Shown here piece after piece: positions 34,576 through 57,356 of a stretch of DNA of 64,000 nucleotides. The notes under the pieces are model-generated. The model worked only from the letters and a program-made list of their open reading frames with translations, was not told where the DNA came from and did not search any database. Each line of letters begins with the position of its first letter. Positions within the stretch are counted from its first letter, which is position 1. The DNA comes from Candidatus Rifleibacteriota bacterium. Lineage in GTDB: Bacteria; Muiribacteriota; Ozemobacteria; Ozemobacterales; Ozemobacteraceae. Location of the stretch: contig CAJOND010000011.1 of the NCBI GenBank assembly GCA_905236675.1, positions 26,102 through 90,101 on the forward strand, written 5' to 3'. A program made the translations under genes and the position numbers.

Positions 34576-37500
34576 ATGGATCAAGCGACATTTAAACAAT
34601 CTTTTCCTGCTTTTCCAATAGACGAGGAATCAATAAACACTCTTAAACTTTTGTTAGTGAAAGATGAAGTGTCAACTGAAGAAGAACTAAATAAACTGCG
34701 AAGTGATTCTCAAACAAGCCTTGATTTTGTTGAAGCTGTATCCAAATTGGATAAAGTCACTCCAGAACTCTTAGCTAATATAGAATCAGAAATACTTAAA
34801 GTTCCATTTATTAGATTAGATGAAACCCAAATAACCAACGAAATATTTAAATTAATTGATGTAAAACTTATTAAAAGTCGTAAAGTAATTCCCATCAAGA
34901 TAAATGGTGCTGAATTACTCGTTGGTACAGTATCTCCAGCAGATTCGTCTATTTTGACCGGCTTGCATCCATCTATGGCTATTAAGCCAGCAAAAGTTTT
35001 AGCAGACAAATTAGAAGCTAAAATTTCCCAATTAACAGGTGTCAAAACATCTAAAAAAAAGCAACAGAGAAAAAGACTTGGCGACATTTTAGTAGAATCC
35101 AATTACTGTAAATCAGAACAAATTGATGAATCCTTAAAGAAAGCAAAAGAACAAAAATTACGATTAGGCGCTTATCTTGTAAAAAATGGAATAGTGACTA
35201 ATAAACAATTGTCTATTGCTTTGTCTAAACAATATGATATTCCGTTCATAGATCTTGACGAAAGTCTCGTAGACCCAGTAGTTGGAAGTCTTTTAACTCA
35301 AAAATTCTGCCAAGACCATATTCTCTGCCCTGTTAAGAAGGAAAATGGCAAACTTGTTCTTGCTATGACTGACCCGACAGATATTATCACTATTGACCAG
35401 ATCGAAATGATGACAGGAATGAGAGTTTCTCCTGTTGTTAGTTCTGAACTTTCGATATTCGCTTCCTTAGATAAACTTTTTGGAGAAAATGTAGATACCT
35501 TGGCTGATGCTATTGGAGGTCCAGACGATAAGAAAGACGATGATGAAGGTTTAGGAGATCTAAATGAAAATGATGCTCCTATTATTAAGCTTGTCAATTT
35601 AATTTTGACTCAGGCTGTTGTCATGAACGTTTCTGATATACATATCGAAATATATGAAAATGAATTTCGTATAAGATTCAGACAGGATGGAACAATGAAG
35701 CTATTCATGACTCCGGCAAGAGCAGCTCATTCAGGCTTGGTCAGCCGTATTAAAGTTATGTCTAACCTTGATATAGCTGAAACAAGAAGACCCCAGGACG
35801 GACGTATAAAACTAACAATGCAAGACCGTAAGATAGACCTTCGTGTATCTTGTATACCCTGTGTCTGGGGCGAAAAGATAGTTATGAGAATCTGCGACCA
35901 GGGTAACTTAAAAGTTGACCTTAAAGACCTTGGTTTTGAACCATTTGTTTTAGATAAGTTCATGGCTGGAGTTCAGTCTCCAAATGGTATTGTTCTGGTT
36001 ACTGGTCCAACAGGTTCAGGTAAAACAACAACACTTTATTCTTCATTGTTCTTGTTGAACAAACCGACAGAAAATATTATGACAGCAGAAGACCCTGTAG
36101 AATACAACCTTATGGGGATTAACCAAGTTCAGTGTCATGCTGATATAGGTCTGGACTTTTCTGCTGCATTGCGTTCATTCTTGCGTCAAGACCCTGACGT
36201 AATCATGCTTGGAGAAATTCGTGACTTTGAAACAGCTAATATTGCTATTAAAGCAGCTTTAACAGGTCACTTGGTTATTTCCACTCTACATACAAACGAT
36301 GCTCCAGCAACAGTTGCCCGTTTGTTGAATATGGGGATAGAACCTTTCTCTCTATCTTCTTCTCTGCGTATTGTTCAAGCCCAGCGTCTTGTTAAAAGAA
36401 TTTGTAAATCTTGCGCAGAAGAATACAAACCAGAACCAGATCTTTTACAATCTCTTAATATAAATCAAAAGACTCTTGAAAGATTAAGATTAGCAGACCA
36501 ATACAGTATAGACACACTTATGTTTAAAAAAGGAAAAGGATGTCCTGACTGTGACAATACCGGCTTAAAAGGAAGACAGGGAATTTATGAAGTTCTTGAA
36601 ATAACCCAGGAATTCAGAGAACTAATCGAAAGAAATGCCAATACAGAAGAAATGCGTCGTCAAGCTATAAAAGACGGTATGCTTTCTTTACGTGAATCTG
36701 CCTTATACAAACTTATTACAGGTAGAACTACCGTTAGCGAAGTTGTTGGAACAACAGTAGATTCTGGTGGCCGTGAAGATGAAGAAGAAAATAAAAAGCC
36801 CAAAATGGCTGAAGAATCTAACGAAAAAACTATGGCCGCTTCACAAAAAGCTAAAGAAAAAGCTGCCGAAAAAGCAAAACTGGAAGCACCCCAACCAATG
36901 CTTATGCTTACAGATGCTTCTACAGCAAGTATTGCAAATGTTGACGCTTTAACCAAAGAATTGCATGAATTTAACAGCATACTTGCAAAAGTTTCTGCTG
37001 TTCAAACTTCAAGCGAAAGTTCATCAAGTCAAAATCTCAAAGTTAGTGATGCTATTCTGAGAAACAATATCACAGCTCCATTAAATGCAATAAAAGCATA
37101 CGCATCCAAAACTGACGAAGCAGCAAAAGTATTGCCTATTATACAAGCTCAAGGGCAAAAGATGGAACATAATGTTAAAAACCTCATCTCACAGTTCTCA
37201 GAATTTGCTCCAAAAGTTGAAAAATTACAGATTAACCAGCTTGTTGAAAAAGAAATATTCAATAATGTAAAGAGTCATGTTGTAACAGCAAGACTTCTTT
37301 CAGGTGTAAAGGAAATAGGCAAAAATCTCAAACTTTCAAAGAATTTACCTCAGAATCTCCCGCCAATAAATGTTGATATAGAAGCTTTTTCAACTATTGT
37401 TTCCAATGTATTTATCAATTCTCTAATTGGACTTGGCTCCAAAGGCGGAGAAATAAAAGTTGTAACAAGATTGAAACCCAAAACCAATAATGTCGTAGAA

Positions 37501-37707
37501 CTTGTGATATTTGATAATGGTACAGGTATTCCTGTTGAAAAACAGAAGAATTTATTCAAACCATTTGATTGTGCCGGTAAAAACTCTTTAGGTCTTGGAT
37601 TGGCGGTTGCCCAAAAATTATTACACGCTCTCAAGGGAAATATCACAATAAAAAGCACTCCTAACACCAGTACTCTCGTTTCTATTGAATTGCCAGCCGC
37701 GGCATAA
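34576..37707 (+). CDS. pilB: PilB/GspE secretion ATPase with MshEN-type N-domain, fused to a C-terminal HisKA/HATPase_c-like module
   Basis: RLGDIL...RLGAYL MshEN motifs, GPTGSGKTT, EDPVEY, LRQDPD, TGHLV.STLHTN, CxxC..CxxC; C-terminal DNGTGIP, LFKPF, LGLGLA. Confidence 0.85.
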   Translation: MDQATFKQSFPAFPIDEESINTLKLLLVKDEVSTEEELNKLRSDSQTSLDFVEAVSKLDKVTPELLANIESEILKVPFIRLDETQITNEIFKLIDVKLIKSRKVIPIKINGAELLVGTVSPADSSILTGLHPSMAIKPAKVLADKLEAKISQLTGVKTSKKKQQRKRLGDILVESNYCKSEQIDESLKKAKEQKLRLGAYLVKNGIVTNKQLSIALSKQYDIPFIDLDESLVDPVVGSLLTQKFCQDHILCPVKKENGKLVLAMTDPTDIITIDQIEMMTGMRVSPVVSSELSIFASLDKLFGENVDTLADAIGGPDDKKDDDEGLGDLNENDAPIIKLVNLILTQAVVMNVSDIHIEIYENEFRIRFRQDGTMKLFMTPARAAHSGLVSRIKVMSNLDIAETRRPQDGRIKLTMQDRKIDLRVSCIPCVWGEKIVMRICDQGNLKVDLKDLGFEPFVLDKFMAGVQSPNGIVLVTGPTGSGKTTTLYSSLFLLNKPTENIMTAEDPVEYNLMGINQVQCHADIGLDFSAALRSFLRQDPDVIMLGEIRDFETANIAIKAALTGHLVISTLHTNDAPATVARLLNMGIEPFSLSSSLRIVQAQRLVKRICKSCAEEYKPEPDLLQSLNINQKTLERLRLADQYSIDTLMFKKGKGCPDCDNTGLKGRQGIYEVLEITQEFRELIERNANTEEMRRQAIKDGMLSLRESALYKLITGRTTVSEVVGTTVDSGGREDEEENKKPKMAEESNEKTMAASQKAKEKAAEKAKLEAPQPMLMLTDASTASIANVDALTKELHEFNSILAKVSAVQTSSESSSSQNLKVSDAILRNNITAPLNAIKAYASKTDEAAKVLPIIQAQGQKMEHNVKNLISQFSEFAPKVEKLQINQLVEKEIFNNVKSHVVTARLLSGVKEIGKNLKLSKNLPQNLPPINVDIEAFSTIVSNVFINSLIGLGSKGGEIKVVTRLKPKTNNVVELVIFDNGTGIPVEKQKNLFKPFDCAGKNSLGLGLAVAQKLLHALKGNITIKSTPNTSTLVSIELPAAA

Positions 37708-39819: not shown

Positions 39820-39996
39820 ATGAGTGGAGTAAGTGGTGTTTCTTCTAATACAGCTGCCTCTTTGATGCAGGTTCTTGATGATTCTATGAAATCACAAACC
39901 GATATGGCTGAAAAAATGGTAAAAATTGCCACCGAAGAGCAGGTTCAAGCTCAACAGCTTTCTTTAATAGGTCAAGTTATAGATAGGTATGTCTGA
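39820..39996 (+). CDS. Small 58-aa protein, YjfB-like putative motility protein (absent from the ORF track)
   Basis: AGGAGG RBS; MSGVSGVSSNTAASLMQVLDDSMKSQTDMAEKMVKIATEEQVQAQQLSLIGQVIDRYV; C-terminal G..ID..V resembles YjfB family; follows fliS. Confidence 0.7.
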   Translation: MSGVSGVSSNTAASLMQVLDDSMKSQTDMAEKMVKIATEEQVQAQQLSLIGQVIDRYV

Positions 39997-41641
39997 TCTT
40001 GGCATTATTTATTATGCCGATGGCCTAATAAATCTATACCGAAACAATATCGATTTATCTAAACCCGTCTGGAAAGAACAAAATTCTTTTCAGATTCTGG
40101 TTAGACGTTTATCAAATATTCAAACATCAAAATCTGTTCTGATTTTACCAGAACAGATTTGTTCTTTTTTTTCACCTGCTGCCAAGTCTCTAAATATTGA
40201 TTTACTACCATTTAATACTTCCAAAATACTTGAAAAACCCTATGCTCTAAATCAGCAGCACTGGTTTCTAGAAAACTCCAGCGGTAACGATTCCTGGTAT
40301 GGGGAATCATTTGCTAAAACTTTTGAAAAATACAGATGGAAAACAGCGATACTTATACCTCTAACAAATCTTCTTATAGATGCAAAAGATGTTGAAGAAA
40401 GCTTAAACTTATATTTTAACGAAGGCTTTGAAGTCTGCTTAATAGAAGAAAGAATATCCGGCGCAGAATGGGCAATTTTTGACAGAGATCTTATTTTAGG
40501 TTTATACAGAAGCCATCCAGAAATAATGACCAGTCGGGGAACTCTTTTCTGGGCTATAAAAAAGCCTCTATACCCATTTAAAGTAGGAATTTATCATTGT
40601 CCAAGAATAAGACCTTCCATAAATGCAAATCTTAAGCTTAATTCACTGAGAGCTCTAAACTGTTATTCGTCTTTAACTTTAGATAACTTTGATTCTCCAG
40701 ATTTCTCTTATGAAAACTTCATAAATAATTCTGGTTGGGAAAAAGCTTATCTGGATTATGCTCCTATTCAAATAAATGTAGAGCCTTCCTCTTTTTGCAA
40801 TGCCAGATGTTTAGATTGTCCCAATACTTTATTAAAACGAAATAAAAGTTTCTTAAACCAAGACTTATTTAAAAAAGCTATTTCCGATATTCAAGACAAA
40901 GACCAAAGAATAGTTTTTTCTGGAGTAGGAGAACCTCTGCTGAATAATAAAATAAATGAAATAATAACATCTGCTAATGATTTTTGTACAACTCTATATA
41001 CTTCTCTGCAAATTATGCCCGATGAATACTTCCCCTATAAATCTCTTGACCATATAAGAATTAGTATAGATTCTGATATTAAAAACAGCTTTGAAAAAAT
41101 AAGAAATGGCTGTTCATGGCAAAACATAGAAGATTTTATAGAAAAATGCTCTAATCTAAAAGAAACATATGAAACAATATTTCCAGAAATAGGTCTTGAT
41201 TTTGTACGTAGAAATGTTTCAGAAGCCGATATTATGCCTTTTTTAAAAAAATGGCGGAAAAAATGTAAACCTGTGTTTAAAGATGATTTTTTCCGATGGC
41301 CTTACAGTAATAAACCTGATGAAATAAGCTGGTATCAAATAAGTAAACAATCAAACTACTGTGGTGCTTCAAAAGACACTTCTACAGTCAGCTACGAACC
41401 CTTTAAACGCAGAATTTGCAGAAATGCTTTCGATCTAACTATTTTAAGCAATGGAAATGTTACTGCATGTCCTTTTGATACTGAGGGCAATCTTTTTTGC
41501 CTTGGCAATATCAAAGATAATACTTTATTAGAAATCTGGAATTTTGATAAATCAAAAGAATGGCGTGAAAAACATTTGAAAAAAAATTTCTATAATAATT
41601 CTTACTGTTATAACTGCCACGATTGGTATAATTATTTTTAA
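39989..41641 (+). CDS. Radical SAM/SPASM protein with degenerate nucleotidyltransferase-like N-domain (spiro-SPASM-like architecture)
   Basis: CNARCLDC, SGVGEPLL, SPASM C...ILSNGNV.AC.FD...LGNI...EIW...CYNC. Confidence 0.8.
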   Translation: MSDLGIIYYADGLINLYRNNIDLSKPVWKEQNSFQILVRRLSNIQTSKSVLILPEQICSFFSPAAKSLNIDLLPFNTSKILEKPYALNQQHWFLENSSGNDSWYGESFAKTFEKYRWKTAILIPLTNLLIDAKDVEESLNLYFNEGFEVCLIEERISGAEWAIFDRDLILGLYRSHPEIMTSRGTLFWAIKKPLYPFKVGIYHCPRIRPSINANLKLNSLRALNCYSSLTLDNFDSPDFSYENFINNSGWEKAYLDYAPIQINVEPSSFCNARCLDCPNTLLKRNKSFLNQDLFKKAISDIQDKDQRIVFSGVGEPLLNNKINEIITSANDFCTTLYTSLQIMPDEYFPYKSLDHIRISIDSDIKNSFEKIRNGCSWQNIEDFIEKCSNLKETYETIFPEIGLDFVRRNVSEADIMPFLKKWRKKCKPVFKDDFFRWPYSNKPDEISWYQISKQSNYCGASKDTSTVSYEPFKRRICRNAFDLTILSNGNVTACPFDTEGNLFCLGNIKDNTLLEIWNFDKSKEWREKHLKKNFYNNSYCYNCHDWYNYF

Positions 41642-43355: not shown

Positions 43356-44140
43356 GCAGCGGTTTATATTCTACAAAAGCAAAAGATTTTACCCAAAAGC
43401 TAGACTTGACAAAGCTAAAGCCTTATGGCGACACAATGAATGATGGAAAAACACAGGTCAGTTTTACACTGCCAGTTCCAGATGACGACCGTTCATTAGA
43501 AGCAGCCAGACAATTAGCTGCCAAAATGGGTTTAGATGATGTACAGGTATGTTTTCATCAAGCTCTGGATAAAAACTTCACTTTTTACATAGCTTATGGC
43601 AATTTAACTCACTCTGTTGATATTACTTCCATTAAAGTAAATACTATTCAATCTGAAGTCCTGGATATGCATTCTATTGATGAATTCATCAAAGAAAAAA
43701 TAGGACGAAATCTTATAGTAATTGGTGCAAGTACAGGAACAGATGCCCATACTGTTGGCATAGATGCAATTATGAATATGAAAGGTTATGCTGGTCATTA
43801 TGGTCTTGAACGTTACCAAATGATTGATGCTTATAACTTGGGCAGTCAGGTCGATAACCATGATTTCATAAAAAAAGCAGTAGAACTAAATGCTGATGTT
43901 TTGCTTGTTTCTCAAACTGTTACCCAAAAAGACATTCATATCACAAATATGGTTGATTTAGTAGAACAACTTGAAGCAGCAAATCTTAGAGATAGATTTA
44001 TACTAATAGCTGGAGGTCCGAGAATCACTAATGATTTAGCAAAAGAATTAGGTTATGATGCAGGATTTGGTCCTGGCAAATATTCTGAAGACGTTGCCTC
44101 ATTTTTTATTGATGAATTTGTGAAAAGAAAAATGAAATGA
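43352..44140 (+). CDS. kamE: Lysine 5,6-aminomutase beta subunit (B12/PLP-binding)
   Basis: KPYGDTMNDG, DAHTVGIDAIMNMKG, SQTVTQK, GYDAGFGPG. Confidence 0.96.
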   Translation: MSSGLYSTKAKDFTQKLDLTKLKPYGDTMNDGKTQVSFTLPVPDDDRSLEAARQLAAKMGLDDVQVCFHQALDKNFTFYIAYGNLTHSVDITSIKVNTIQSEVLDMHSIDEFIKEKIGRNLIVIGASTGTDAHTVGIDAIMNMKGYAGHYGLERYQMIDAYNLGSQVDNHDFIKKAVELNADVLLVSQTVTQKDIHITNMVDLVEQLEAANLRDRFILIAGGPRITNDLAKELGYDAGFGPGKYSEDVASFFIDEFVKRKMK

Positions 44141-44299
44141 TATACTATAAATCGTTAAATACCATTAATATGGTTGATTGTCACACTGGAAACAGTAAGC
44201 TTTCTAAAAGATAGAGAAGTTTAAAAAAAATCTTTGATTAACTTCGATATTTTATATATTATTTAGCGTATTTAAGAAATATAATTAGAGAATTAAATA

Positions 44300-44878
44300 A
44301 TGAAAATAACAGAGTTTTTATCAAACTTTATAAAGCACCCAGGCTGCGTAGGGGCCATAGCACCCAGTACAGAAAATTTAGCAGTCCAAATGGTTGCTCC
44401 TGTAGATTTAAAAAACGTTGAAACACTTGTAGAATATGGTCCAGGGACAGGTGTTTTTACAAAGTATATTTCAGATAGAATAGACCATAAAAAGACTATG
44501 TTTTTTAGTCTCGAAATAGACGATAAGATGTTTGAAGTTTCTACAGAAGCTGTTCCTGATGTTGAAATAATAAAAGATTCCGCTTCTAATGTGTGTGACC
44601 AATTGAAAAAGCATGGTAAAGAATATGCAGACGCTATTATCAGCGGTTTGCCCTTTGCAATATTCCCATATAAACTTCAGGATGAGATAATTGACGCTAC
44701 TGTTGAAGCACTACCAAAAGGCGGAATTTTTACAACTTTTACATATTTTCATGGTTTTTATCTTCCAGGAGCTTGTAGAATTAGAAAAGTACTAAAAATG
44801 AATTTTTCTGAATTTCATTTAAGTCCTGTAGTATGGAATAACTTTCCTCCAGCGATAGTTTATTGGTGTAAAAAATAG
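44300..44878 (+). CDS. SAM-dependent methyltransferase (phospholipid N-methyltransferase-like)
   Basis: VGAIAPS, VEYGPGTGVFT, IISGLP, NFPPA. Confidence 0.85.
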   Translation: MKITEFLSNFIKHPGCVGAIAPSTENLAVQMVAPVDLKNVETLVEYGPGTGVFTKYISDRIDHKKTMFFSLEIDDKMFEVSTEAVPDVEIIKDSASNVCDQLKKHGKEYADAIISGLPFAIFPYKLQDEIIDATVEALPKGGIFTTFTYFHGFYLPGACRIRKVLKMNFSEFHLSPVVWNNFPPAIVYWCKK

Positions 44879-44885
44879 CATTATA

Positions 44886-45692
44886 ATGAAACAATATTTA
44901 GTAACCATAATAATCCTCGCGGTTAGTTTTTTTACTAGTAATTCATTATTTGCTGATTCTTCAAATTCCTATTTTTTTTATATCAAAAATAAAGAAACTC
45001 CTATTCCATATTCCAAATATCATTATGGTTATTTAAAAGGTATTGAAGTCAAAATAACACCTGAAAAACTAGAAATACCATCAGGATCAATAGCAACTTT
45101 TACCGTTACTTTAACAAATAAAAACAAATATCCAATAACTATTGATTATCCCACAGGACGCGAATGGGATATGTTTGTCACTTATAATGAGAGACCTATT
45201 TTCAGATGGTCAAATGGTTTCAGATGGGAAGAAGCACCTCATTCTATCGCTTTAATGCCAAAAGAATCAAGAAGTCAGACATTTACCTGGGTTGCTGTAA
45301 ATAAAACAGGAGATCCACTTTATCAAGGAATTTATAAATGTGTTGGCTTAGTAACAAGCTCTCCAAAAATTATAGTTTCTAATGCTGTTAAAATCAGACT
45401 TACACCGCCTTCTGTTGTGGCTAGAAAAACAATAAAAACAAACTTGAATCAATGTTTTGAAATAGAATTACCAAGATTTTCCGATAATCAGGAATTAAAA
45501 TGGGAAATTATTTACCGTAATAACGACAATAGAATTGGTTTAACAAGTAAAAAAATCAAGTCTAACTCTTTTGTTTATACATTTATGCCAAAAAGATTAG
45601 GTCATGTTGAATTTGATTTGTATGCTTTCCCACATATTTTAAACAATAAAGTTTCTTTGGAACGTCGCTCTTACCGTATAGAAGTTGAGTAA
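44886..45692 (+). CDS. Exported protein with BsuPI-like proteinase inhibitor domain and C-terminal chagasin-like Ig domain
   Basis: Signal peptide; TLTN....I.I.YPTG..WD..V......FRWS pattern; C-terminal FEIELP...W...F.P...G. Confidence 0.55.
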   Translation: MKQYLVTIIILAVSFFTSNSLFADSSNSYFFYIKNKETPIPYSKYHYGYLKGIEVKITPEKLEIPSGSIATFTVTLTNKNKYPITIDYPTGREWDMFVTYNERPIFRWSNGFRWEEAPHSIALMPKESRSQTFTWVAVNKTGDPLYQGIYKCVGLVTSSPKIIVSNAVKIRLTPPSVVARKTIKTNLNQCFEIELPRFSDNQELKWEIIYRNNDNRIGLTSKKIKSNSFVYTFMPKRLGHVEFDLYAFPHILNNKVSLERRSYRIEVE

Positions 45693-45709
45693 AAAAGTCG
45701 GAGGAAATT

Positions 45710-48700
45710 ATGCCCACACCTACCACAAATAAAGTTTCTGTAGAAAACCTGCTTTTGCAAAAAAATCTAATTACTGCTGAACAATTAGAAAAAGCCAAAA
45801 ATATTCAATCACAGACTTTAGAAAAATTAGAAGACGTTATCGTCAGATTAGGTTATTTAACAGAAAAACAAATATTAGAAGTATGGGCGGAAATATTAGG
45901 GTCTACCGTAGTTGATTTAACAAACATTAAAATAGACGCAAAACTACTTTCTCTGATTCCAGAATATAATGCAAAACAATACAGAATGATTCCCTATAAA
46001 AAAGAAGGGAATAAGCTCACTGTTGTTATGGCTGACCCGTTCGACATCATGGCAACAGATATGATTGCCTTTTTAACCCAATGTAAATTAGAGGTTTTTA
46101 TCGCTTCTAAAAACCAAATAGATCTAGCTATTCGTCAGCTTTATTCTTGGGAAGGTTTTTCTTCTGGAGGTGACGAATCAATTAAGAGTCAAGAAGAACC
46201 AGACCTCAAAGATAAAGGCATAGACATAGAAAAGAAAACCTCAGAACAGGGAGCTGTAGTTAGATTTCTTGACGCAGTATTCAAACAGGCTATCTTAAAA
46301 AGAGCTTCTGATATTCACGTTGAACCAAGAGAAGAAATGCTTCTCGTCAGATTTAGAATAGATGGTATTCTTCATGATGCAATGACAGGACCTAAAAGCC
46401 TGTTGGCACCACTAATCAGTAGAATAAAAATTCTTTCACACCTTGATATAGCCGAACGACGTTTGCCTCAAGATGGCCGTCTGAAAGTTAAGATGCAAGA
46501 TAATGAAGTAGACTTCCGTGTAAGCACTGTTCCTAGTCTTTTAGGAGAAAAAGCTGTTCTTCGTTTACTTCAAAGAGAATCAAAATTTGATTTGGATAAC
46601 ATTGGCTTTTTCCCCGATGATTTAAAAAGATTAAAATCTGCCTTAGACGAACCTTACGGACTTATTTTAGTTACAGGACCTACGGGAGCAGGTAAAACCA
46701 CTACGCTTTTTGGTATGTTGAAATACTTTAACAATAGTGAAATCAATATTTTTACTATTGAAAATCCTGTTGAATACAGAATATCAGGCATTACCCAAGT
46801 TCAAATCAACGACAAAATAGGTTTAGACTTCGCTACTGGTCTGAGAACGGCTTTGCGTCAAGACCCAGATGTTATTCTAGTCGGAGAAATTCGTGACTTA
46901 GAAACAGCAGATATAGCATTCAGAGCATCTCTGACTGGTCATAAAGTTCTTTCTACAATACATACTAATAATGCTCCCGCAACTATAAACCGACTTATCA
47001 ATATGGGAGTTCCTGCATATCTGGTAACAGCAGCAGTCAGAGTTGTTATTTCACAAAAGCTTCTTCATAAAAACTGTCCTTACTGCTCGACAGAATATAA
47101 ACCATCACCTAGTGTAATTCAAAGACTTGGTATTTCACCAGCTAAGATAATTGGTACAAAATTCTATAAAGGCGTTGGTTGTCGAGAATGTAATAAAACA
47201 GGTATTCATGGAAGAATTGGCGTTTATGAAGTAATGGTTGTTACCAACTCTATCAAGAACGTTATTATGGAAGGTGGCACTGAAAACGCCATTAAACGTG
47301 TTGCCAGGTTAGAAGGAATGAGAACACTCCGTGAAAGTGCCTTAGAAGTGGCAATGAAAGGTGAATCGACTTTAGAAGAAGTAATTTATGTTACTCCAAC
47401 AGATGAAGAAGAAAAGACTTTGTCTATTCCTGGATTAACTTCTAGTGGAAATTACGGAAATATAAACAGCTTCATCATGCCAGTTCAAATGCCAGTTCAA
47501 ATGCCGCCTCAAGCGATGATTCAAAGAGATAATCAGGCTCAAATTCCTAATATTCCAACTCCAAATCCATCCACACAATATAATAAACCCACATTAGATC
47601 TGAATGATCCAGTAACAAAAACTATCATTTCTGCAATAGAAAAGAATTTCTTGTTCTTGAATGATGAAAAACTTGCCGACCAACTCCATCTTCCTGTGCT
47701 TCAAATAAAAGAATTAATGCAAGCTAAAGGCCTAGAAAGAAATGCAGAAAATTTTGCCACACATTTTGGCGGTGAAGTCTCCGAGTTTAACGAATCAAAC
47801 ATTGGCGAAATCATAGAAATGATAAATGCCCAAGAAGGAGAAATACCTGCATTTATTCTTGCAGATGAAAAATTAGCTCCTCTATGGGTTTCTCAAGCTG
47901 TTAAAGTTTCTCTAGAAAAAATAAAGAATAAATTAACAAAACCAGAAGATCTGGTAAGAGAATTTGATGAAAGTTTTATCTATAATAACAATCTTGGTCA
48001 AGTTTATGAATGGGCAAACAGAAGCCGCTTTAAATTAATTGAGCTTGCAATGCCAGGAAAATTTAAAGCTTGGCAGTTTGGTGAAATAGAATTATGGCTT
48101 GAAAGCAAAGATTTGCAAAGCTGTACAAGAGAAGCCCTTATGTGGCTAATGAATGAAAAACTTCAATGCAATCGTGGAGACCTTCCATCATTGTTAAATA
48201 AACAAGTATTTATTGACAACGGTTTAGAAGCCCTATTAGACAAATATGACGGTTCTTGTTTCCGTCTTGTAGACCAGGTATATCCAGGAATATTTAAACA
48301 ATGGCAATTCACAGAAGAAGAACAATTGCTTTGGTTCCAGGAAAACCGTATGCAGATTGCTGCAGAAGCAACAAAATGGCTTATAGAAGATCGTCTAGGT
48401 ATTCCTTATGAAGATATTCCTAAAAGAATTTCTGTAAGAGAATTCCATATGAACGGATTGTCTAAACTTCTTGATTTGTTCAATCAAAATCTGTTCCAAG
48501 TCATTGAAAATGCATACCCAGAACAGTTCAAGCCTTGGCAATTCAGTGAACAAAACGAAATCTGGAAGTCTAGTAATTCACTTGAAATAGCAAAACAAGC
48601 TACTCAATGGCTAATTAGCGAAAAGCTTCATATTACCAACGAAAAAGCTGTTACCTATTTGACAAGACGACACTTCATAAGTAATGGGCTAGGTCAAATG

Positions 48701-49246
48701 CTCGGAACTCTGTTTAATCATTCTCCTTTCCAAGCCCTGGAAAACTTGATGCCAGAACTTAAAACTAACGAAGCTTTCCAAAAAATTCTTTTCTCTTATT
48801 CTAGAGATATACAAGAAATTGAATCAAAATGGGAAGCAATTGCTGAAAAAATTGCAATTAATCAATTCGGTAAAGCTAGATTCAAAGTAACTTTGCCAAA
48901 TTTGAAAATTGCTCCTATTGTTCCAGAAAATGAACGTATTTATATAAATGCTTCAAATCAGGTCGAATACGTTCCTCAAATTCTAATACCACGATTAAAT
49001 GCCCATTCTGATTTAAGCGATTTTTCTAATTGGGTTCCTTACTGTGACAGACTGATTTATTGGATGCTCGGAGATGATAGAGGTACAGGCTACACAGAGC
49101 CATCTCATCCTAAAGTTAAACTGGTATTTATTGATTCTTTGATTCCTGGTTTACGCTCAAAAGGTCTGCTAGATATAGTAGAAAGATTGCAACAGTTAGC
49201 AGTAGCCCATAACAGATTGCTAGATGTAAGAGCCGAAATAATATGA
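45710..49246 (+). CDS. GspE/PilB-family ATPase fused to a long C-terminal region with HTH-like segment and Trp-rich (DUF4046-like) repeats
   Basis: ASDIHVEP, PQDGR, GPTGAGKTT, LRQDPD, TGH.VLSTIHTN, CxxC..CxxC; then repeats ending FKAWQF/FKQWQF/FKPWQF. Confidence 0.85.
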   Translation: MPTPTTNKVSVENLLLQKNLITAEQLEKAKNIQSQTLEKLEDVIVRLGYLTEKQILEVWAEILGSTVVDLTNIKIDAKLLSLIPEYNAKQYRMIPYKKEGNKLTVVMADPFDIMATDMIAFLTQCKLEVFIASKNQIDLAIRQLYSWEGFSSGGDESIKSQEEPDLKDKGIDIEKKTSEQGAVVRFLDAVFKQAILKRASDIHVEPREEMLLVRFRIDGILHDAMTGPKSLLAPLISRIKILSHLDIAERRLPQDGRLKVKMQDNEVDFRVSTVPSLLGEKAVLRLLQRESKFDLDNIGFFPDDLKRLKSALDEPYGLILVTGPTGAGKTTTLFGMLKYFNNSEINIFTIENPVEYRISGITQVQINDKIGLDFATGLRTALRQDPDVILVGEIRDLETADIAFRASLTGHKVLSTIHTNNAPATINRLINMGVPAYLVTAAVRVVISQKLLHKNCPYCSTEYKPSPSVIQRLGISPAKIIGTKFYKGVGCRECNKTGIHGRIGVYEVMVVTNSIKNVIMEGGTENAIKRVARLEGMRTLRESALEVAMKGESTLEEVIYVTPTDEEEKTLSIPGLTSSGNYGNINSFIMPVQMPVQMPPQAMIQRDNQAQIPNIPTPNPSTQYNKPTLDLNDPVTKTIISAIEKNFLFLNDEKLADQLHLPVLQIKELMQAKGLERNAENFATHFGGEVSEFNESNIGEIIEMINAQEGEIPAFILADEKLAPLWVSQAVKVSLEKIKNKLTKPEDLVREFDESFIYNNNLGQVYEWANRSRFKLIELAMPGKFKAWQFGEIELWLESKDLQSCTREALMWLMNEKLQCNRGDLPSLLNKQVFIDNGLEALLDKYDGSCFRLVDQVYPGIFKQWQFTEEEQLLWFQENRMQIAAEATKWLIEDRLGIPYEDIPKRISVREFHMNGLSKLLDLFNQNLFQVIENAYPEQFKPWQFSEQNEIWKSSNSLEIAKQATQWLISEKLHITNEKAVTYLTRRHFISNGLGQMLGTLFNHSPFQALENLMPELKTNEAFQKILFSYSRDIQEIESKWEAIAEKIAINQFGKARFKVTLPNLKIAPIVPENERIYINASNQVEYVPQILIPRLNAHSDLSDFSNWVPYCDRLIYWMLGDDRGTGYTEPSHPKVKLVFIDSLIPGLRSKGLLDIVERLQQLAVAHNRLLDVRAEII
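47477..47512 (+). repeat. 12-bp tandem repeat encoding the MPVQMPVQMPPQ linker
   Basis: atgccagttcaa x2 + atgccgcctcaa. Confidence 0.8.
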
Positions 49247-49428
49247 GTGAAACAAAACTTAAATTAAGAACTAACAAAGCAGAACAGCCAAAAGAAATAG
49301 TAATTATTCAGCATGTGAATCGTACGTTTTCTTTTCCTTTATGGGTTCCTATACTAGGTTTAGTTATTTATTTCGTAGGAGAAATATTGTTTTTTATAAA
49401 AGCAAATTTCCCTAAATTTAAAATATAG
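49243..49428 (+). CDS. Small single-TM membrane protein
   Basis: ATGA overlap with the upstream ATPase; hydrophobic segment LWVPILGLVIYFVGEILFFI. Confidence 0.6.
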   Translation: MSETKLKLRTNKAEQPKEIVIIQHVNRTFSFPLWVPILGLVIYFVGEILFFIKANFPKFKI

Positions 49429-49446
49429 TTTCTTTAATGAAATTAG

Positions 49447-49484
49447 AAAAAATAGTTTAGTATAAACGTACTAAACTATTTTTT
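49447..49484. terminator. Bidirectional intrinsic terminator
   Basis: aaaaaatagtttagta-loop-tactaaactatttttt between convergent genes. Confidence 0.8.
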
Positions 49485-50017
49485 TATTCGATTTCATTAG
49501 CTTTTCTTTTTTCAGCTTCTTTAGATTCTATGTAAAAAGATTTAATACGACCAGGCCTATAAATTCTCTGTCTTATTAATTCTTCATCACTTGGCTCTTC
49601 ATCTTCTGCTATATTATTAGTAATACTTGCAGTTGTTTCAGAAGCAAGCCTATTCACTGCTTCAATTATATTTGTTGCTGTTGCCAGTTCTGGAACATCT
49701 TTTAATGATTGAATAGAAGAACTTGATTTATTTTCTTGAATACTAACAGTATCACTGCCTGTTTCTTTACTCGTCTTGGTGGCTTTTTTACGTAACTCAG
49801 AAAAATCTGGAAGTTTTGGTTTGAAACCTTTGCCTCTTTTGGATTCTAAAGTCGTAATCTTACCTGTTTCAGGATCTTTAGGACCATCAAATTCAGAAAA
49901 AGATGATTTTTTTTCAAATTTTACATCATCCATCCATTTAGGAAATTTATTTTGAGCCAGAACCAATGAATTAGCAACAAAAAACAATATAATAAGAAAA
50001 TAATAATGAATCTTCAT
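49484..50017 (-). CDS. Exported hypothetical protein
   Basis: Signal peptide MKIHYYFLIILFFVANSLVLA; AGGTG RBS. Confidence 0.7.
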   Translation of the reverse strand: MKIHYYFLIILFFVANSLVLAQNKFPKWMDDVKFEKKSSFSEFDGPKDPETGKITTLESKRGKGFKPKLPDFSELRKKATKTSKETGSDTVSIQENKSSSSIQSLKDVPELATATNIIEAVNRLASETTASITNNIAEDEEPSDEELIRQRIYRPGRIKSFYIESKEAEKRKANEIE

Positions 50018-50276
50018 AAAGAATCACCTATTAATATAGCAAATGATATAAATCAAACTTTCACTAAATATAACATACTTTGGTATGGTTCTAAATGCAA
50101 TACAACAACAATAAAAACCAAAGAAGCGTAGCTTCTAAAAACTAAACTAATTTAATGGTATAAGGCACAGGGCCGTCCTAAAGCCCTCTTCCCTTCTCCC
50201 TCATCTCTCTTCCCTCAAAGAAAGAACGAAAAATTCTTTCTTAAATAAAAATTTGAAAAAATAAAGAGGATTATAT

Positions 50277-53200
50277 ATGAAACAAAAGTTACTATTTTTT
50301 GTTCTTTCTTTGGCGGCGATAGCCGCAATCATTGGTTGTCACTGTGGTGGTCACGCACCATACATAAATCTTCGAGAAGAAGGAGATAGGCAAATCATCA
50401 CTATTGAACGTGAAGTTGGCGAAAATGGCAGATTTGCTGATATTATATTCCCCTCTGGTGCGATAATTAAGTGCACATCTGACCACACAATGAAAAAAGG
50501 CACAAAAGTTAGTGTGACAGAAAGAAAAACAACTAACAATGCCGGTTTTGCTGATGAAACCCCGGCTTATATATATGATATAACGGCTAAATTGTTCACT
50601 GGAGACGCATTGAACGGAGTATTCTCTGTAAACACTCTTGAAAAACCTCTTTCTGTGACTCTTCCAAATAATAGCAATACAGGTTTGTGCTATCTTGGAA
50701 CAAGAGCTAGTGAAACCGACCCCTGGCGTTATGCTCTTGCAACAGAAAGCGGCCAAGCAAATGCAAGATTTATAAGACTTTCATCCTCTACAATTAAAAC
50801 TCCGACCTTTGAACTTTACAGGTTGGGTATTCAGTCTGCTTTATTTGTCTTCAACAAGAGTGAAAATAAAGCAGAAGTTGATGCTGTCGAAATTTCCTCT
50901 GAAAATGTTGCTAAGAAAGATGACAAATATGCTGACAAGCTTATTGTTAAAATGGTTGTAGAAGGAGAAGACCTCAGCTATTTAAGTTCTGAAAACCTTG
51001 TTGCAAGAATTACTTATAGAACAAATACCCCTAAGGGCGCTGATTTAGATTTTATTTACAATAAGATAGACAGAGATGACAAAGCTGTTTCTGGCAAACA
51101 GGAACATTCTTTTGAAATCAATAACTTAATGCAGGGTATCATTGTTGGGAATAAAATGGATATAAGTTTTGTTCTTTATATTCACGACATCAGCTTAGAA
51201 GATTTTCCGACCACTTTCTTAATAGAATTCTATTCTGCAAGTTTTAACGAAAAAATTCTGCCATTCTGCTATACGCAGGTTTTCAATTTTGAAATCCAAG
51301 AACAAGAACCCCCAAGCCCGCCTACACCAACTGAAACCTATACTATAACCATAGACCTTAACGGCGGAATTCTTGATAAAACAACAATAGAATATACTGC
51401 AGAAACAGAAAGTTTTGATCTTCCAACACCAACCAAAGAAGGTTATGAATTTTTAGGTTGGACTGGTTCAGAAACTACCGTTCCTCTAACACCTATGACC
51501 ATAAAACAAGGCTCAACTGGTAACAAAACTTTTACCGCTAATTGGAGCTTAATAGACTATAGCATAACCTATAACAATGTTTCTGGTTGCACATTTGCTA
51601 CTGCTAACCCGACAAACTATAACATTGAGTCTGATGAGATTACTCTTTCCAACCCGACCAAAGCTAACGACACCTTCACTGGCTGGACTTATGAAGGCCA
51701 GACAACACCTCAGTTAGAAGTAAAAATACCAAAAGGTTCTACAGGAGATAAAATCTTCAATGCTAACTGGAAAAAATACGCTGTTGTTAGCTTAAAGTCT
51801 GTTGCTACCGACTTTCCTATAGATGGTCAGATTCAATTGGAATTCGATAAAGATATTGCTTGGCAAGACTCTTTCAAGGACTGCATAACAATCACCCCAA
51901 TTACACCAAACATACCAACCATAACCATCAACTCATGTTCTTACAGCAATAAGATACTAACGCTGACTCTTTCAGAAAATCTCAAATATAACTCTCAATA
52001 TCAAATTGCTGTTGCTGGAATTGAAAATGTTTGTGACAATAATATGACTTTCACGACTGTCGCTTGGGCTGTGACACCGCAAATTTCCAGCCAAACAAGC
52101 GATATAACTAAGGTTAATGGGGTTGACAGACTTGTTTTACAACCCACTTTCACTATTGATTATGGAAAGAAAGTGCTGAACCAGACAGCTGCTAAGAATA
52201 ATATCAAATTTAATGATGCTGCTCTGCCTAATTCATGTAATATTGTTTTTGATGAAGATGGGAAAATTGCAACACTGACTTTTACAGCTAATCTTAATGT
52301 ATTCTCAGATTACTCTCTTAGCTTAGAAGGGTTTGTCGATGATGACAATGCTACTATAAACGCTCAAAATTTGAGTTTCAAGACTGTTCCACCTGAAGAC
52401 ATAACTGGCGAAGGCACTTTAAGCAGTCCTTACCTGATTTATACTCAGGCTCATCTTAACAAGCTTAGGGATAATGCTTACCTAAAGACTGGTAAGTATT
52501 TTAAGCAGATGGATAACATTGTTATGACTGGCGACTGGACTCCTATAGGTTCAGATTTTTACCCGTTCAGCGGTTTTTATGATGGGAATAATCTTAAAAT
52601 CACTGGTTTAACTATTCAAACTGGCAATGATTACGCTGGTTTATTTTCTGTTATAGGTTCTAGTAGCAAATCTAAAATAGAAAATCTGAAACTAGAAAAT
52701 GTTAATATAAATGGTAAGAATTATGTTGGTGCTCTGAGTGGTTATATAAATAATGCAGATATTACCAATATTCATGTTATAGGAGAAAAAATAAGCATCA
52801 TAGGTGATTATCAATATATAGGCGGTCTGGCTGGGGAATGCAGAGGTGTTAATATTGCTAGTTGTTCTGTTGATTCACCCAATGGATTAGTATATGGTGG
52901 AGATACAGGGTTCGATATTGGTGGTTTGATTGGTTTAACTACTACTTCTAAAAGCACTATTTCAGGTTCTTTTGTTTCTGTTAAAATTCAAGGGAATACA
53001 TATGTCGGTGGTTTGGTTGGGAATATGGAATATTGTGATGTTAAAAACTCCTATTCTGATTCAAACTTAACTGTCTTAGGAGTTAATTCAAGCGATATTG
53101 GCGGTCTTATTGGTTATATGAATAATGATTATTCCTCATTTAATAACTGCTATGCAAAAATGGCCTATGGTTCAGGGTCAGATAGTTACGGATGTTGTCT

Positions 53201-53740: not shown

Positions 53741-54235
53741 ATGAAGATTTCTACCTCAAGGTTTGGAACAATTGACGTAAGCGAAGAAGAAATAGTCCGC
53801 TTTGAAGAAGGTCTATTAGGTTTCGGAGATTATCACAGGTATGTGATTCTCAACGCTTCTGAAAAGAATTCTCCTTTCAGGTGGCTACAATGCTTAGATG
53901 ATGGCAATCTTGCATTTGTCATTATTGAACCTCTGAATTTCATGTTTGAATATGATATAGAAATTTCAGATTCTGATCAGGAATTTGTAGGACTTACCAG
54001 AGGTGAGGATGCAATTCTTTATGCAATTGTTTCTATTCCAGCAAATCCTCAAAACATGACAGCAAATTTACAAGGACCGCTGCTTATAAATGTGGTTAAC
54101 CGCAAGGGAAGACAGATTATATCCAGCAATCCTAAACATCAAATAAAGACGAAGATTTTGGACGAAATGCAGATTCGGGCTAGGAAGCTTCAAGAGCTGA
54201 ATAAGTCTTTAAACCCTAAAGAAAAGGGGGAATAA
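53741..54235 (+). CDS. fliW: Flagellar assembly factor FliW
   Basis: [33 protein letters not shown]. Confidence 0.95.
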
Positions 54236-54240
54236 AGCAA

Positions 54241-54513
54241 ATGCTCGTATTAACCCGAAAAATCAACGAAAAGATTGTAATTGGCGATGATATCGAGATT
54301 GTTTTGGTTGATATAACCAAAGATCAAGTGAAAATCGGTATAAACGCCCCTAGAAATGTTAAGGTACACCGTTGGGAAGTTTACGAAGAAATTCAAAAAG
54401 AAAATAGAGAAGCGGCTCAAATGCCAAGTTTGGATCCATTAGCAAACTTACCGATGGATTTCTTAAAAAATTTAGGAAAAAAAGATATTGTAGTAAAAAA
54501 ACGCAAAAAATGA
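54241..54513 (+). CDS. csrA: Carbon storage regulator CsrA
   Basis: [30 protein letters not shown]. Confidence 0.96.
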
Positions 54514-54565
54514 AGCTTTTTGTAGATTTTTGCTAATAATTGGTCATATCTGTCGGAAATCAGGT

Positions 54566-54670
54566 TAAGAGTAGAGATAATTATTTTCCGATAGGAAAGA
54601 TATACGGGGGATAAGGCGATTAAGCTTAGAAGGATTCAACATCCCCTAACATAATTCATGGAGGCAAACC
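54566..54670 (+). promoter_or_regulatory. Putative sigma28 promoter and CsrA-site-containing leader of flagellin
   Basis: -10-like TCCGATAG at 54587; leader stem ggggat...atcccc enclosing AAGGA, second GGA in the RBS (ATGGAGG). Confidence 0.5.
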
Positions 54671-54671
54671 A

Positions 54672-57356
54672 ATGAGTCTACGTATTAACTCTAATGTTAC
54701 TGCAATGACCGCTCATGGTAATCTGGTAACTAACGATTCCAGATTGTCTACTTCAATTGAAAAGCTGTCATCAGGGCTTAGAATCAATCGTGCCGCAGAC
54801 GATGCTGCTGGTCTTACCATTTCAGAAAAATTAAAGACCCAGATCCGCGGTATAGCTCGTGCACAACAGAATGTTCAGGATGGTATCAGTCTCATCCAGA
54901 CAGCAGAAGGTGCACTTAACGAAACACACAGTATGTTACAGCGTATGCGTGAACTGGCTATTCAGTCAGGCAACGATACTCTCACCACTACTGACCGTCT
55001 CGAAATCCAAAAAGAAATCGCTCAGCTCAAGGAAGATATTGACCGTATCGCTAACGATACTGAATACAATACTAAAAAACTCCTTGACGGCACTGGAACC
55101 GCTGCTATTTCAACCAGCGACCCAGCTAATCTTACTGGTATCGCTTGCGGTACTGTACTAACATTTTCAGACTTTTCCGTAACCGTTATGGTAAAACAGG
55201 AAGTTATTCCTGGTATTGGTTACAAAAGCTATGACGGTGTTGCTGAAGTTCAGCGCTCTGCTATATTCACAACTGTAGACGGTGAAATAGCAAGCTCATC
55301 TACTACACTTCAGTCTATTGCGAACTTTTATGACGCAGAAGGCAATTTCATTCTTGACCTTCCACAAACCCTTTATCTCCAAGGCGACAACCATCAAGGC
55401 ACCTGTACTGTAAGTAAAGATCTCACTCTTGCTCAGTTAACTGAACGCATTGAAGCTATGGCTACTGCTGACCAGCTTGACAAAGGCTTGCACTTCGAAG
55501 GTTCTACTGCAAAATTAGAACTTTCTGGCGACAACAATGGTCAGATTACTGTAGTTTCTGGTAGAACCGGAGAAGTTGGCAGAATCAATTTCACTGGTAG
55601 TGAAGATCTTGTAAAAGCTCTTGGTTTTGAAGATGTAATCAAAGCAGAAGACCCTGTTTATTCTGTTGCTGTTACAAACCTTGGTGTTGAATATGGCGCT
55701 CGCAAGACTTTGACTACACAGGTTTCAGGTAATCGTGCTTCCGGTCTTATCGAAGGCATCGACCTTTTCTATGAACCTCCGCAGTCTGCAAAGGTAACCA
55801 CTCAGGAATCTTACGTTGGCGTTGAAATTAAAAACGATATTACTTTTGATATTAACGATTCTGTAGACTCTGCTTTTGGCGGTCTTGGAGCTCCTGTAAC
55901 AATTACTGTTCCTGCGGGTAATTATAGTATGGAACAGGTAGCCGAAATGGTTAATGCTCAGATTATTGATGCTTACGGTGGAAATACTCCATTGATAACC
56001 TGTTCTATTAACGACCATTATTCAATTCAATTCACTTCAGTTAATACAGGTTCTGCTGGTTGGGTAAGTATTCAGAATACTACTCCTGCTGGAACAAACG
56101 AACTTGGTCTTACAAATGGTACTTATCATGGCACTGGCGGCGGTTCTGCCTACTATGTAGCAGACTTAGCCAACAATGGTTTGATTCAGGACTGGGATTA
56201 TGCATCTAATAATGTTCAGTTTAAAATCGAAGATATGCATGGCAATTCTGTTGATATAACTCTTGATCAGGATTACACTTTGTTAACTGCTCAGGATATA
56301 GCTAATGACATCAATTCTCAGATAGGTACAAATTCTGCACCAAGTTCTATGTCGGTTAAAGCAGAAGTTATAAATGGTGTTCTTTCATTCCGTTCTACAG
56401 AAACCGGTTATAATTCAGGTTTTTCACTAACCGATACTGCTAATCTCAATAAACTTCAGATGAGTGAAGGGCAATATTACAATGGTGTTGACGGCAATGT
56501 TGCCAACCAGGACTTTGCCTATACTCAGTCAGCTTCTAGCTATGGTTTCACTGTAGCCGGAACTTCTCCGACAGATGATCTTGTGTTTACAATTGCAGAC
56601 CTTGACGGCACTGCAATGCAGATAACAATTCCCGCTGGTGATGCAGGTTACGAAATTGATCCTGCAACAGGAGGTTTAAATGCTGGTCCTAGCAGTGGTT
56701 CTTCCTTTGTATCTGCTACTTATATTGTTTCGGAAATTAATAAAGCAGCTAATGCTGCTGGCTGCAAAATACACGCAGAATTCGATACATTGAGTAAAAG
56801 AATTAAATTGGTTTCTGATGTAACTGGTAAAGAAGGAAAGATTGTTATCACCGATAACAGCGAACCACCTAGCCAGAACAATCTCAGAACTGTATTTGAT
56901 GTTGAGCAGGCCACTTACATGAACGGTATAGGCCAGACTGCTTACACAATGCATGTTAAAGATACTTCAATCACTTTCCAGATTGGTCCAAACGAAGGTG
57001 CTACTGCTACATGTAATATCACTAGAATGGACGTTAGAGCTCTTGGAATTGAAGATCTTGACCTCACTACCAGAGAATCTGCCAATCGTGCAATAGGTAT
57101 TGTAGATAACGCTTTGCAGATTGTTTCTTCAGAACGTGCAAAACTTGGCGCCATTCAGAACCGAATGGAATACACCAGCAATTCTCTTGCTGTAGCAAGT
57201 GAAAATATGACCAACGCTCAGTCTCGTATAGCTGATGTTGATATGGCTTCTGAAGTCATTGAAATGACATCCGCCCAAATCTTGCAGCAAGCAAGTAACG
57301 CTATGGTTGCTCAAGCTAATACTGCAGCACAGACTGTTCTCCAGCTATTGAGATAA
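54672..57356 (+). CDS. fliC: Flagellin, giant (894 aa)
   Basis: MSLRINSN, LSSGLRINRAADDAAGL, QTAEGAL, LQRMRELAIQ; C-terminal FQIG.N, RAKLGAIQNR, SRIADVDMA, VLQLLR. Confidence 0.97.
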   Translation: MSLRINSNVTAMTAHGNLVTNDSRLSTSIEKLSSGLRINRAADDAAGLTISEKLKTQIRGIARAQQNVQDGISLIQTAEGALNETHSMLQRMRELAIQSGNDTLTTTDRLEIQKEIAQLKEDIDRIANDTEYNTKKLLDGTGTAAISTSDPANLTGIACGTVLTFSDFSVTVMVKQEVIPGIGYKSYDGVAEVQRSAIFTTVDGEIASSSTTLQSIANFYDAEGNFILDLPQTLYLQGDNHQGTCTVSKDLTLAQLTERIEAMATADQLDKGLHFEGSTAKLELSGDNNGQITVVSGRTGEVGRINFTGSEDLVKALGFEDVIKAEDPVYSVAVTNLGVEYGARKTLTTQVSGNRASGLIEGIDLFYEPPQSAKVTTQESYVGVEIKNDITFDINDSVDSAFGGLGAPVTITVPAGNYSMEQVAEMVNAQIIDAYGGNTPLITCSINDHYSIQFTSVNTGSAGWVSIQNTTPAGTNELGLTNGTYHGTGGGSAYYVADLANNGLIQDWDYASNNVQFKIEDMHGNSVDITLDQDYTLLTAQDIANDINSQIGTNSAPSSMSVKAEVINGVLSFRSTETGYNSGFSLTDTANLNKLQMSEGQYYNGVDGNVANQDFAYTQSASSYGFTVAGTSPTDDLVFTIADLDGTAMQITIPAGDAGYEIDPATGGLNAGPSSGSSFVSATYIVSEINKAANAAGCKIHAEFDTLSKRIKLVSDVTGKEGKIVITDNSEPPSQNNLRTVFDVEQATYMNGIGQTAYTMHVKDTSITFQIGPNEGATATCNITRMDVRALGIEDLDLTTRESANRAIGIVDNALQIVSSERAKLGAIQNRMEYTSNSLAVASENMTNAQSRIADVDMASEVIEMTSAQILQQASNAMVAQANTAAQTVLQLLR

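Follow-up and report, generated by a model that had tools for sequence, protein, structure and literature searches.

What use could a secretion motor have for about 610 additional residues at its C-terminus? Few bacterial ATPases have been studied as well as the PilB/GspE motors, which normally end soon after their zinc-binding motif. The question is raised by one gene in a stretch of 64,000 nucleotides (termed the window) from a Candidatus Rifleibacteriota bacterium (GenBank assembly GCA_905236675.1, contig CAJOND010000011.1, positions 26,102 to 90,101 of the forward strand). The open reading frame (ORF) at window positions 45710-49246 on the plus strand translates into 1178 amino acids (aa) plus a stop, with no internal stop. 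Its product consists, in order, of a PilB/GspE-type ATPase, a Pro/Gln linker, helices resembling a helix-turn-helix (HTH), helical repeats and an alpha/beta tail. The part that follows the ATPase, called the arm below, is shared by nearly all surveyed genomes of the window's family, and it combines repeats of the DUF4046 type with a tail that is predicted to have a nuclease fold. The reading tentatively favored here is that the arm is an exapted, non-catalytic docking or regulatory arm, which would bind a protein partner or regulate the ATPase hexamer. The parts of the gene are as follows.

45710..49246, plus strand: whole fusion gene; 64 relatives, 29-92% identical over the arm, 63 of the 64 being the same PilB fusion or fragments of it
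45749..46147, plus strand: N-terminal MshE-type region, residues 14-61 (NF053729) and 64-146 (Pfam MshEN)
46241..47386, plus strand: T2SSE ATPase core, residues 178-559, with Walker A, Asp box, Walker B, His box and tetracysteine
47405..47626, plus strand: variable Pro/Gln-rich linker, residues 566-639, the least conserved part
47627..47773, plus strand: HTH-like helical segment, residues 640-688, window's family only; predicted local distance difference test (pLDDT) 84-88 in AlphaFold2
47774..48079, plus strand: helical region including the degenerate repeat R0 (about residues 714-790, ending in FKAWQF); DUF4046 profile at 744-782, 5.0 bits
48080..48310, plus strand: DUF4046-type repeat R1; profile at 796-859, 28.3 bits
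48311..48544, plus strand: DUF4046-type repeat R2; profile at 874-937, 42.8 bits
48545..48754, plus strand: DUF4046-type repeat R3, without the closing FK.WQF; profile at 950-1015, 37.1 bits
48755..49243, plus strand: tail domain, residues 1016-1178; restriction-endonuclease-like alpha/beta fold in a tail-only AlphaFold2 model

Integrity and distribution of the fusion

An unusual fusion in a single contig could come from a chimeric assembly, or from two genes mistakenly called as one by read-through. This explanation can be discarded with near certainty. The gene is one open frame, and contigs of two other studies cover the junction between ATPase and arm (X2 record 5 runs from 47291 to 49210, and X3 records 12-14, which overlap one another, together reach from 46995 to 49309). 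An earlier note, made from the letters of this DNA alone, had described the fusion, and 63 relatives carry the same PilB fusion. A survey with each species of the phylum represented by one genome found the arm in 46 of the 50 genomes from the window's family of Riflebacteria, in proteins of about 1150-1200 aa, and the four genomes without it are 66-84% complete. Both genomes of a second family carry it as well, in two paralogues each (33-34% identity), while it is present in none of the 34 genomes of nine other families. Full-length relatives, of about 1100-1200 aa, come from many assemblies and sources under the names Candidatus Riflebacteria, Ozemobacteraceae or Rifleibacterium, the closest from gut and rumen assemblies.

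In a tree of ATPase cores, the fusions of both families form one group (support 100/100), which is consistent with a single fusion event. This branch is long and separate from the seven other PilB-like paralogues of the genome. Six of these full-length paralogues have 555-638 aa and no added C-terminal domain, and the seventh is a fusion to a histidine-kinase-type domain.

The arm is about as well preserved as the N-terminal domain of the motor. Among 34 orthologues, median identity is 80% in the ATPase core, 64% in the N-domain, 62% in repeats R1-R3 and 66% in the tail, and only 24% in the linker. Judged from these alignments, the arm appears to be under purifying selection. Pieces of the gene are also present in contigs of two RNA libraries from one study, where they cover 19 and 21 of 30 gene bins and one contig crosses the overlap between the stop of the fusion gene and the start of a small downstream ORF, although this evidence is weak because carry-over of DNA is possible. 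A literature search, judged from titles and abstracts, returned nothing on DUF4046 or on a fusion of a PilB-type ATPase with it, and in the part of the Riflebacteria literature matches that was covered the gene is not treated in title or abstract.

The motor and the modules of its arm

The earlier note placed a complete secretion ATPase in the first 560 or so residues, and this holds for residues 1-565. Pfam T2SSE (PF00437) matches residues 178-559 with an expectation value (E) of 2e-131 and 438.3 bits against a cut-off of 24.9. At the N-terminus, the MshE-related cyclic-di-GMP-motif model NF053729 of NCBIfam matches residues 14-61 (42.3 bits, cut-off 38), and Pfam MshEN matches residues 64-146 (E 3e-18). 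Each 24-residue MshEN motif opens with RLG in the consensus. In the translation the motif starts read SVE and KLE, and an RLG is found out of register at residues 46-48. Walker A reads GPTGAGKT, Walker B DPDVILVGEIRD, the His box TGHKVLSTIH and the tetracysteine CPYC...CRECN. The protein thus shares with PilB, GspE and MshE the MshEN-type region, the T2SSE core and these motifs. The PilB equivalog model TIGR02538 matches end to end, over residues 13-562, with 600.1 bits, below its cut-off of 675.65, and the GspE model TIGR02533 gives 534 bits, below 630.25. The fusion protein is therefore a member of the T2SSE family assigned to neither the PilB nor the GspE equivalog. Its catalytic motifs look intact, from which ATPase activity and hexamer formation are inferred.

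The Asp box usually reads E-D-P-x-E. Here it is TIENPVE, as had been reported, and the substitution could be taken as the mark of a dead ATPase. That idea was rejected. Of 67 members of the fusion family scanned, 63 have ENP(V/I)E and 3 have EDP(V/I)E (the pattern found no match in one), and a paralogue of the same genome that lies next to a PilC gene (contig C30) has TVENPVE. Since the position alternates within the family and the PilC-adjacent paralogue has Asn too, the site tolerates Asn, and the substitution is uninformative on activity.

The genome, of 5.2 Mb, is unusually rich in parts of type IV filament machines, with 25 T2SSE matches, 8 of them full-length PilB-like frames, and 17 T2SSF matches. 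A second PilB-type ATPase fusion lies in the window itself, 8 kb upstream, at 34576-37707 (+). It has about 1043-1045 aa and carries a pair of MshEN stretches, T2SSE and, at its C-terminus (residues 934-1042), a HATPase_c domain of the histidine-kinase type. Its ATPase core groups with the paralogue on contig C126, not with the DUF4046 fusion.

The Pro/Gln linker that follows the motor, and the HTH-like text after it, are present in the protein as quoted in the earlier note. The likeness to an HTH is weakly supported. Residues 640-688 of the model align by VIA-align with HTH domains of the LuxR/NarL type (Z 4.5-4.7, root-mean-square deviation (rmsd) 1.8-2.4, 47-48 residues). The matches are five DNA-binding domains of response regulators and RhlR, all at weak Z; the best is 4yn8 (Z 4.7, rmsd 2.0, 47 residues aligned), and 1zn2, 5o8y and 1a04 are also among them. 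No Pfam family matches the segment at E up to 10. In the paralogues of the second family the HTH-like part is absent, and four clean repeats come straight after the linker.

The repeats comprise three clear copies and one degenerate copy of the 77-78 residues first described: R0 (714-790), R1 (791-867), R2 (868-945) and R3 (946-1020). FK.WQF closes at residues 790, 867 and 945, which fits the nucleotide positions first given for these motifs. In local alignments compared with 500 shuffles, R1-R3 match each other at z 13-23 (R1-R2 23, R2-R3 22), and R0 matches the other units at z 4-11 (R1 and R2 at 9-11). Across all pairs z ranges from 4.3 to 23.3, with five pairs reached by none of the 500 shuffles and R0-R3 by one. 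Residues 640-1178 were modeled with AlphaFold2 from an alignment of 35 rows; over residues 640-1054 the model is all helical, with pLDDT near 90. Foldseek with this 539-residue model against PDB and BFVD gave generic helical-repeat rows only, none at E 0.001 or below, and VIA-align with it was dominated by the last 180 residues.

The resemblance to DUF4046 proposed for these repeats is supported by profiles. A hidden Markov model made from 26 segments that PF13255.11 marks in relatives, themselves found with the arm as query, scores 116.4 bits on the fusion protein, and the best of 300 shuffles scores 5.3. All 64 relatives in a large protein collection carry a pre-computed PF13255.12 label. 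PF13255.11 itself matches neither the fusion protein at E up to 10 nor anything else in the genome, and it matches 51 of 81 repeat-sharing proteins scanned. Residues 571-1178 have no match to any Pfam family at E up to 10 or to any PDB chain, and one to a PHROG at E 2.6. An exhaustive phmmer search with the arm gave 719 cluster representatives, with E down to 1e-171, nearly all of them matched by way of the repeats. The fusion is the sole DUF4046-type protein in the window's genome.

Proteins with DUF4046 repeats share a helical unit of about 65-85 residues, A..A..WL.E..L.....I......F...GL..LL......F..I...YP..FK.W.F. Most have 300-600 aa and consist of repeats only. Some are fused to other domains, namely Sigma70_r2 (P0066, P0069, P0092, P0198), a transposase-type HTH (P0126, P0207) or HNH_repeat (P0163, P0196). 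The repeats are seen joined to T2SSE only in the fusion family; among the 81 proteins scanned this is the case for P0071 alone, which is a paralogue. P0066 is a protein of 1374 aa in which many DUF4046-type repeats stand on both sides of the sigma-70 region 2 module.

The alpha/beta tail was originally put at about 130 aa. Its alpha/beta character was confirmed, and its length is about 163 aa because a long leading helix belongs to the domain. The motifs KWE, LPN.K and PYCDRL.YW noticed in it are strongly conserved. A model of the tail alone, from an alignment of 69 rows that includes the distant paralogues of the second family, has a pLDDT of 91.7 and a predicted template modeling score of 0.84. 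Its elements run, in order, long helix, three strands, helix, strand, strand and two helices, an order shared with PD-(D/E)xK nucleases (helix, three-strand meander, helix, strand, strand-helix). Against 48,161 representative chains, VIA-align placed AF1548 (1y88) first, with Z 8.0, rmsd 2.9 and 106 aligned residues. The next matches, at Z 5-6.8, were Can1, BsaWI, EcoRII, LlaBIII (by its matched region), Can2, PspGI, BstEII, NucC, FokI and Card1, several of these nucleases reaching 6.0-6.8. Named restriction enzymes and other nucleases account, by title, for 25 of 50 VIA-align rows and for about 34 of 50 on a Foldseek-derived list. Foldseek itself gave nothing significant with the tail (best E 0.16), though restriction enzymes head its list. 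No single Z is more than middling, and the call is made because the nuclease matches are consistent across the list. The model thus supports a restriction-endonuclease-like, PD-(D/E)xK fold with the core alpha-beta-beta-beta-alpha-beta.

Searches by sequence gave no such link. A profile search of PDB with the tail returned one chance-level row and nothing relevant, alignment by hhalign to 12 Mrr_cat (PF04471) segments from the window's phylum gave a probability of 1.4%, and a search of the ESM Atlas gave no usable match. Among 5.8 billion sequences, the tail profile matched only the fusion family, with the caveat that the search was word-based: all 8 "near" matches are fragments, and all 75 "longer" ones are fusions or fragments. 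The tail is therefore known only fused to this ATPase.

When the catalytic positions are mapped by secondary structure and alignment, the "PD" position before strand 2 is P1063-N1064, whose Asn is invariant in both families, and on strand 3 the "(D/E)xK" is E1086-Y-V1088 in the window's family, against (S/N)-F-A in the second family. Both canonical residues, Asp and Lys, thus appear to be replaced. With PN at the first position and ExV or (S/N)xA at the second, a classical metal site is unlikely, and the tail has probably lost nuclease activity. This bears out the suggestion of an inactivated PD-(D/E)xK-like domain, in that the fold is supported and the canonical motif is apparently degenerate. 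Several residues are invariant across both families all the same (W1041, N1064, K1066, C1112, W1118 and H1133-P-K1135), and because these polar and Trp residues persist some site seems to be preserved. Acidic residues conserved in the window's family are E1073, E1086, D1113 and D1122-D1123.

This block of invariant polar residues could be taken to mean that the tail is an active, non-canonical nuclease driven or gated by the ATPase, as in a defense or toxin-type effector, all the more as its structural neighbors include nucleases of defense systems (Can1/Can2, Card1, NucC, Avs4, McrBC, SduA). We regard this as very improbable: an invariant Asn takes the place of the canonical Asp, the Lys is exchanged for Val in the window's family and for Ala in the second family, and the gene, stable, single-copy and syntenic, belongs to the core of the family (46 of 50 genomes) and does not have the patchy occurrence of an island gene. 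Many of the structural neighbors, restriction enzymes in particular, are obligate dimers. The arm might accordingly be mainly a device for self-association, in which tails dimerize across the long flexible linker and so cross-link hexamers or hold the ATPase inactive. Such an arrangement is conceivable but doubtful, as it would leave the conserved repeats and the conserved neighboring genes unexplained.

Nucleic acid and the charge of the arm

The DUF4046 company found elsewhere (Sigma70_r2, transposase-type HTH and HNH_repeat), together with the weak HTH likeness and the nuclease fold of the tail, suggests one possible function. The arm could bind nucleic acid, with the HTH-like segment, the repeats and a dead-nuclease clamp coupling a PilB-type hexamer to uptake, export or surveillance of DNA. 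The earlier note proposed such a motor, which would handle nucleic acid directly.

The evidence from charge speaks against it. Repeats R1-R3 have a median net charge of -9 and are negative in all 35 orthologues, and the HTH-like segment is also acidic in all 35, with a median of -2. The 143 other repeat-bearing proteins, in contrast, are mostly basic, with a median pI of 8.99 and 87% above 7, which would itself fit a DNA-binding arm. Moreover, residues 571-1178 match no DNA-binding family of Pfam (E up to 10), the tail seems to have lost the canonical nuclease residues, the paralogues of the second family do without the HTH-like part, and the conserved neighbors include no genes for competence or DNA processing; they encode a BsuPI-like protein and a PP2C phosphatase (see the next section). 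Only the tail is mildly basic in most orthologues. A DNA-binding arm is thus judged unlikely, and the proposal of a motor that handles nucleic acid directly is not supported.

A more elaborate version is that the six arms of a hexamer form a DNA-derived gripping device at the base of a type IV filament machine, gated by the PP2C- or STAS-type membrane neighbors, in which the HTH-like segment, the DUF4046 units and a dead-nuclease clamp would hold DNA or a partner that binds DNA-like polyanions. This is quite unlikely in our view. If it is true, the fusion would be the first case of a PilB-type motor with a physical link to nucleic acid, serving its uptake or export.

Conserved neighbors and the proposed role

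Two genes flank the fusion gene in the window.

44886..45692, plus strand: upstream conserved protein, 268 aa, with a hydrophobic, signal-like stretch at the N-terminus and a BsuPI domain (Pfam BsuPI)
49243..49428, plus strand: membrane mini-protein, 61 aa, whose start overlaps the stop of the fusion gene (ATGA); present at 5 of 5 same-genus loci

The upstream gene ends 17 nucleotides before the fusion gene, and its BsuPI match has an E of 1.2e-8 and 35.3 bits against a cut-off of 22.9. A homologue of about 260 aa stands directly upstream on the same strand at all 10 loci of other genera of the family, and an ORF of like size at the 4 same-genus loci that could be assessed. It is missing at all 4 loci of the second family.

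Downstream, six other genera have a protein of 246-300 aa with a C-terminal membrane helix, seen at locus L021 as its N-terminal reading frame only. These proteins share invariant IR..NQD, ADG.G and GDD, and also SEG, except that one of the five aligned has SQG. When five of them were combined in a profile, it matched the PP2C structures 2y09 and 2j82 in PDB at E 2-3e-13, as well as PppA, MspP, Stp1 and PstP; Pfam PP2C_2 reached only E 0.005. By these sequence matches, the downstream gene of other genera would encode a membrane-anchored PP2C phosphatase. ORFs of full size lie at L018 8619-9440, L019 8942-9766, L022 8311-9213, L029 13212-13964 and L030 4966-5706. All 5 loci of the window's genus, and two further genera, have a downstream ORF of only 50-65 aa, which keeps a juxtamembrane motif, P.EIVL..H.DR.FS.PLW, and the membrane helix. 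Two loci show neither the PP2C gene nor the short ORF. Aligned over 57 aa, the mini-protein shares 40% identity with the C-terminus of the L019 downstream protein (274 aa), and it appears to be the remnant of the C-terminal end of a PP2C phosphatase gene, left by a decay that kept one end. The result is a conserved three-gene unit of a BsuPI-like secreted protein, the fusion ATPase, and a PP2C phosphatase or its membrane remnant. A complex prediction with the arm (539 aa) and the cytoplasmic part of the mini-protein (residues 1-36) scored 0.00, which counts neither for nor against binding, and a promoter and terminator scan of 44100-50300 gave counts no higher than shuffles.

The fusion gene also differs from other PilB/GspE genes in having no adjacent PilC/GspF platform gene. 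No T2SSF/PilC match (PF00482) is found anywhere on its contig (C11), and paralogues on contigs C21, C30 and C50 each have an adjacent PilC. The filament or secretion machine driven by the fusion ATPase is encoded elsewhere. In the second family, two prepilin-type (N_methyl) genes lie shortly upstream of one paralogue, and a gene for a STAS-domain protein comes after the other.

The coordinates that go with these second-family arrangements are L026 13217-13546 and 13591-16386, L025 13450-16898 and L028 5964-9197. The neighbors of the paralogues there are either the STAS gene and a gene for a TPR protein of 931 aa, or the N_methyl genes and a gene for a protein of about 700 aa without known family.

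Elsewhere in the window, 39989-41641 (+) encodes a 550-aa radical SAM/SPASM protein with a long N-terminal extension of no known family (Pfam SPASM at E 2e-11; Radical_SAM at 28.8 bits, just below its cut-off of 29.5). As judged from translations, 53741-57356 (+) encodes a FliW-like protein (164 aa), a CsrA-like protein (90 aa) and then a flagellin-like protein of 894 aa. The last is some three times as long as an ordinary flagellin, its flagellin-like ends being separated by a long insert in the center.

The docking or regulatory arm, which remains the favored reading, could have arisen as follows. The fusion protein is a lineage-specific ATPase of the PilB/GspE family, which forms the hexameric motors of type IV filaments and type II secretion. 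Early in one branch of Riflebacteria, this motor would have gained a C-terminal arm from two modules that are found in DNA-associated contexts, a DUF4046 helical repeat array and a domain of restriction-endonuclease fold. The nuclease fold would then have lost its canonical Asp and Lys, and the repeats would have turned acidic, changes which suggest that the arm neither cuts nor grips DNA. Instead, it may serve as a docking or regulatory platform on a flexible linker, six per hexamer, where a protein partner bound by the arms would link the activity or location of the motor to a signal. Input would come at the membrane and be of the phosphatase or partner-switching type. The unit of BsuPI-like protein, ATPase and PP2C phosphatase, with the STAS gene by one paralogue of the second family, points to control of this kind, and a membrane input of the PP2C or partner-switching type is the best lead.

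Several points weigh against this docking or regulatory reading. The mildly basic tail (median charge +2, pI 8.6) leaves room for contact between tail and DNA. The beta part of the tail, although the most conserved stretch of the arm, has a pLDDT under 50 in the 539-residue model, which leaves the model of the tail alone as the basis of the fold. No structural Z value exceeds 8.0, and such values, as the tool warns, can reflect a merely common arrangement of elements; the profile-profile comparison with Mrr_cat gave the low probability stated above. The reading of the catalytic site comes from secondary structure, and N1064, K1066, H1133 and K1135 could, together with the conserved acidic residues listed for the window's family, form an active site or a ligand site of a non-canonical kind. 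A protein partner for the arm is itself a proposal, and the complex prediction is neutral. Finally, two paralogues of the second family stand just downstream of prepilin-type genes, which fits the role of a plain pilus motor under no special control.

If the docking or regulatory reading is right, the fusion would be a case of domain exaptation onto a motor, in which an arm of about 600 residues, as constrained as the N-terminal domain, would be built from modules stripped of nuclease catalytic residues and of basic charge. The DUF4046 repeat, so far uncharacterized, gains a defined and testable context. For the Riflebacteria that carry it, the arm points to an undescribed regulation or localization of type IV filament machines, possibly by way of a membrane PP2C phosphatase.

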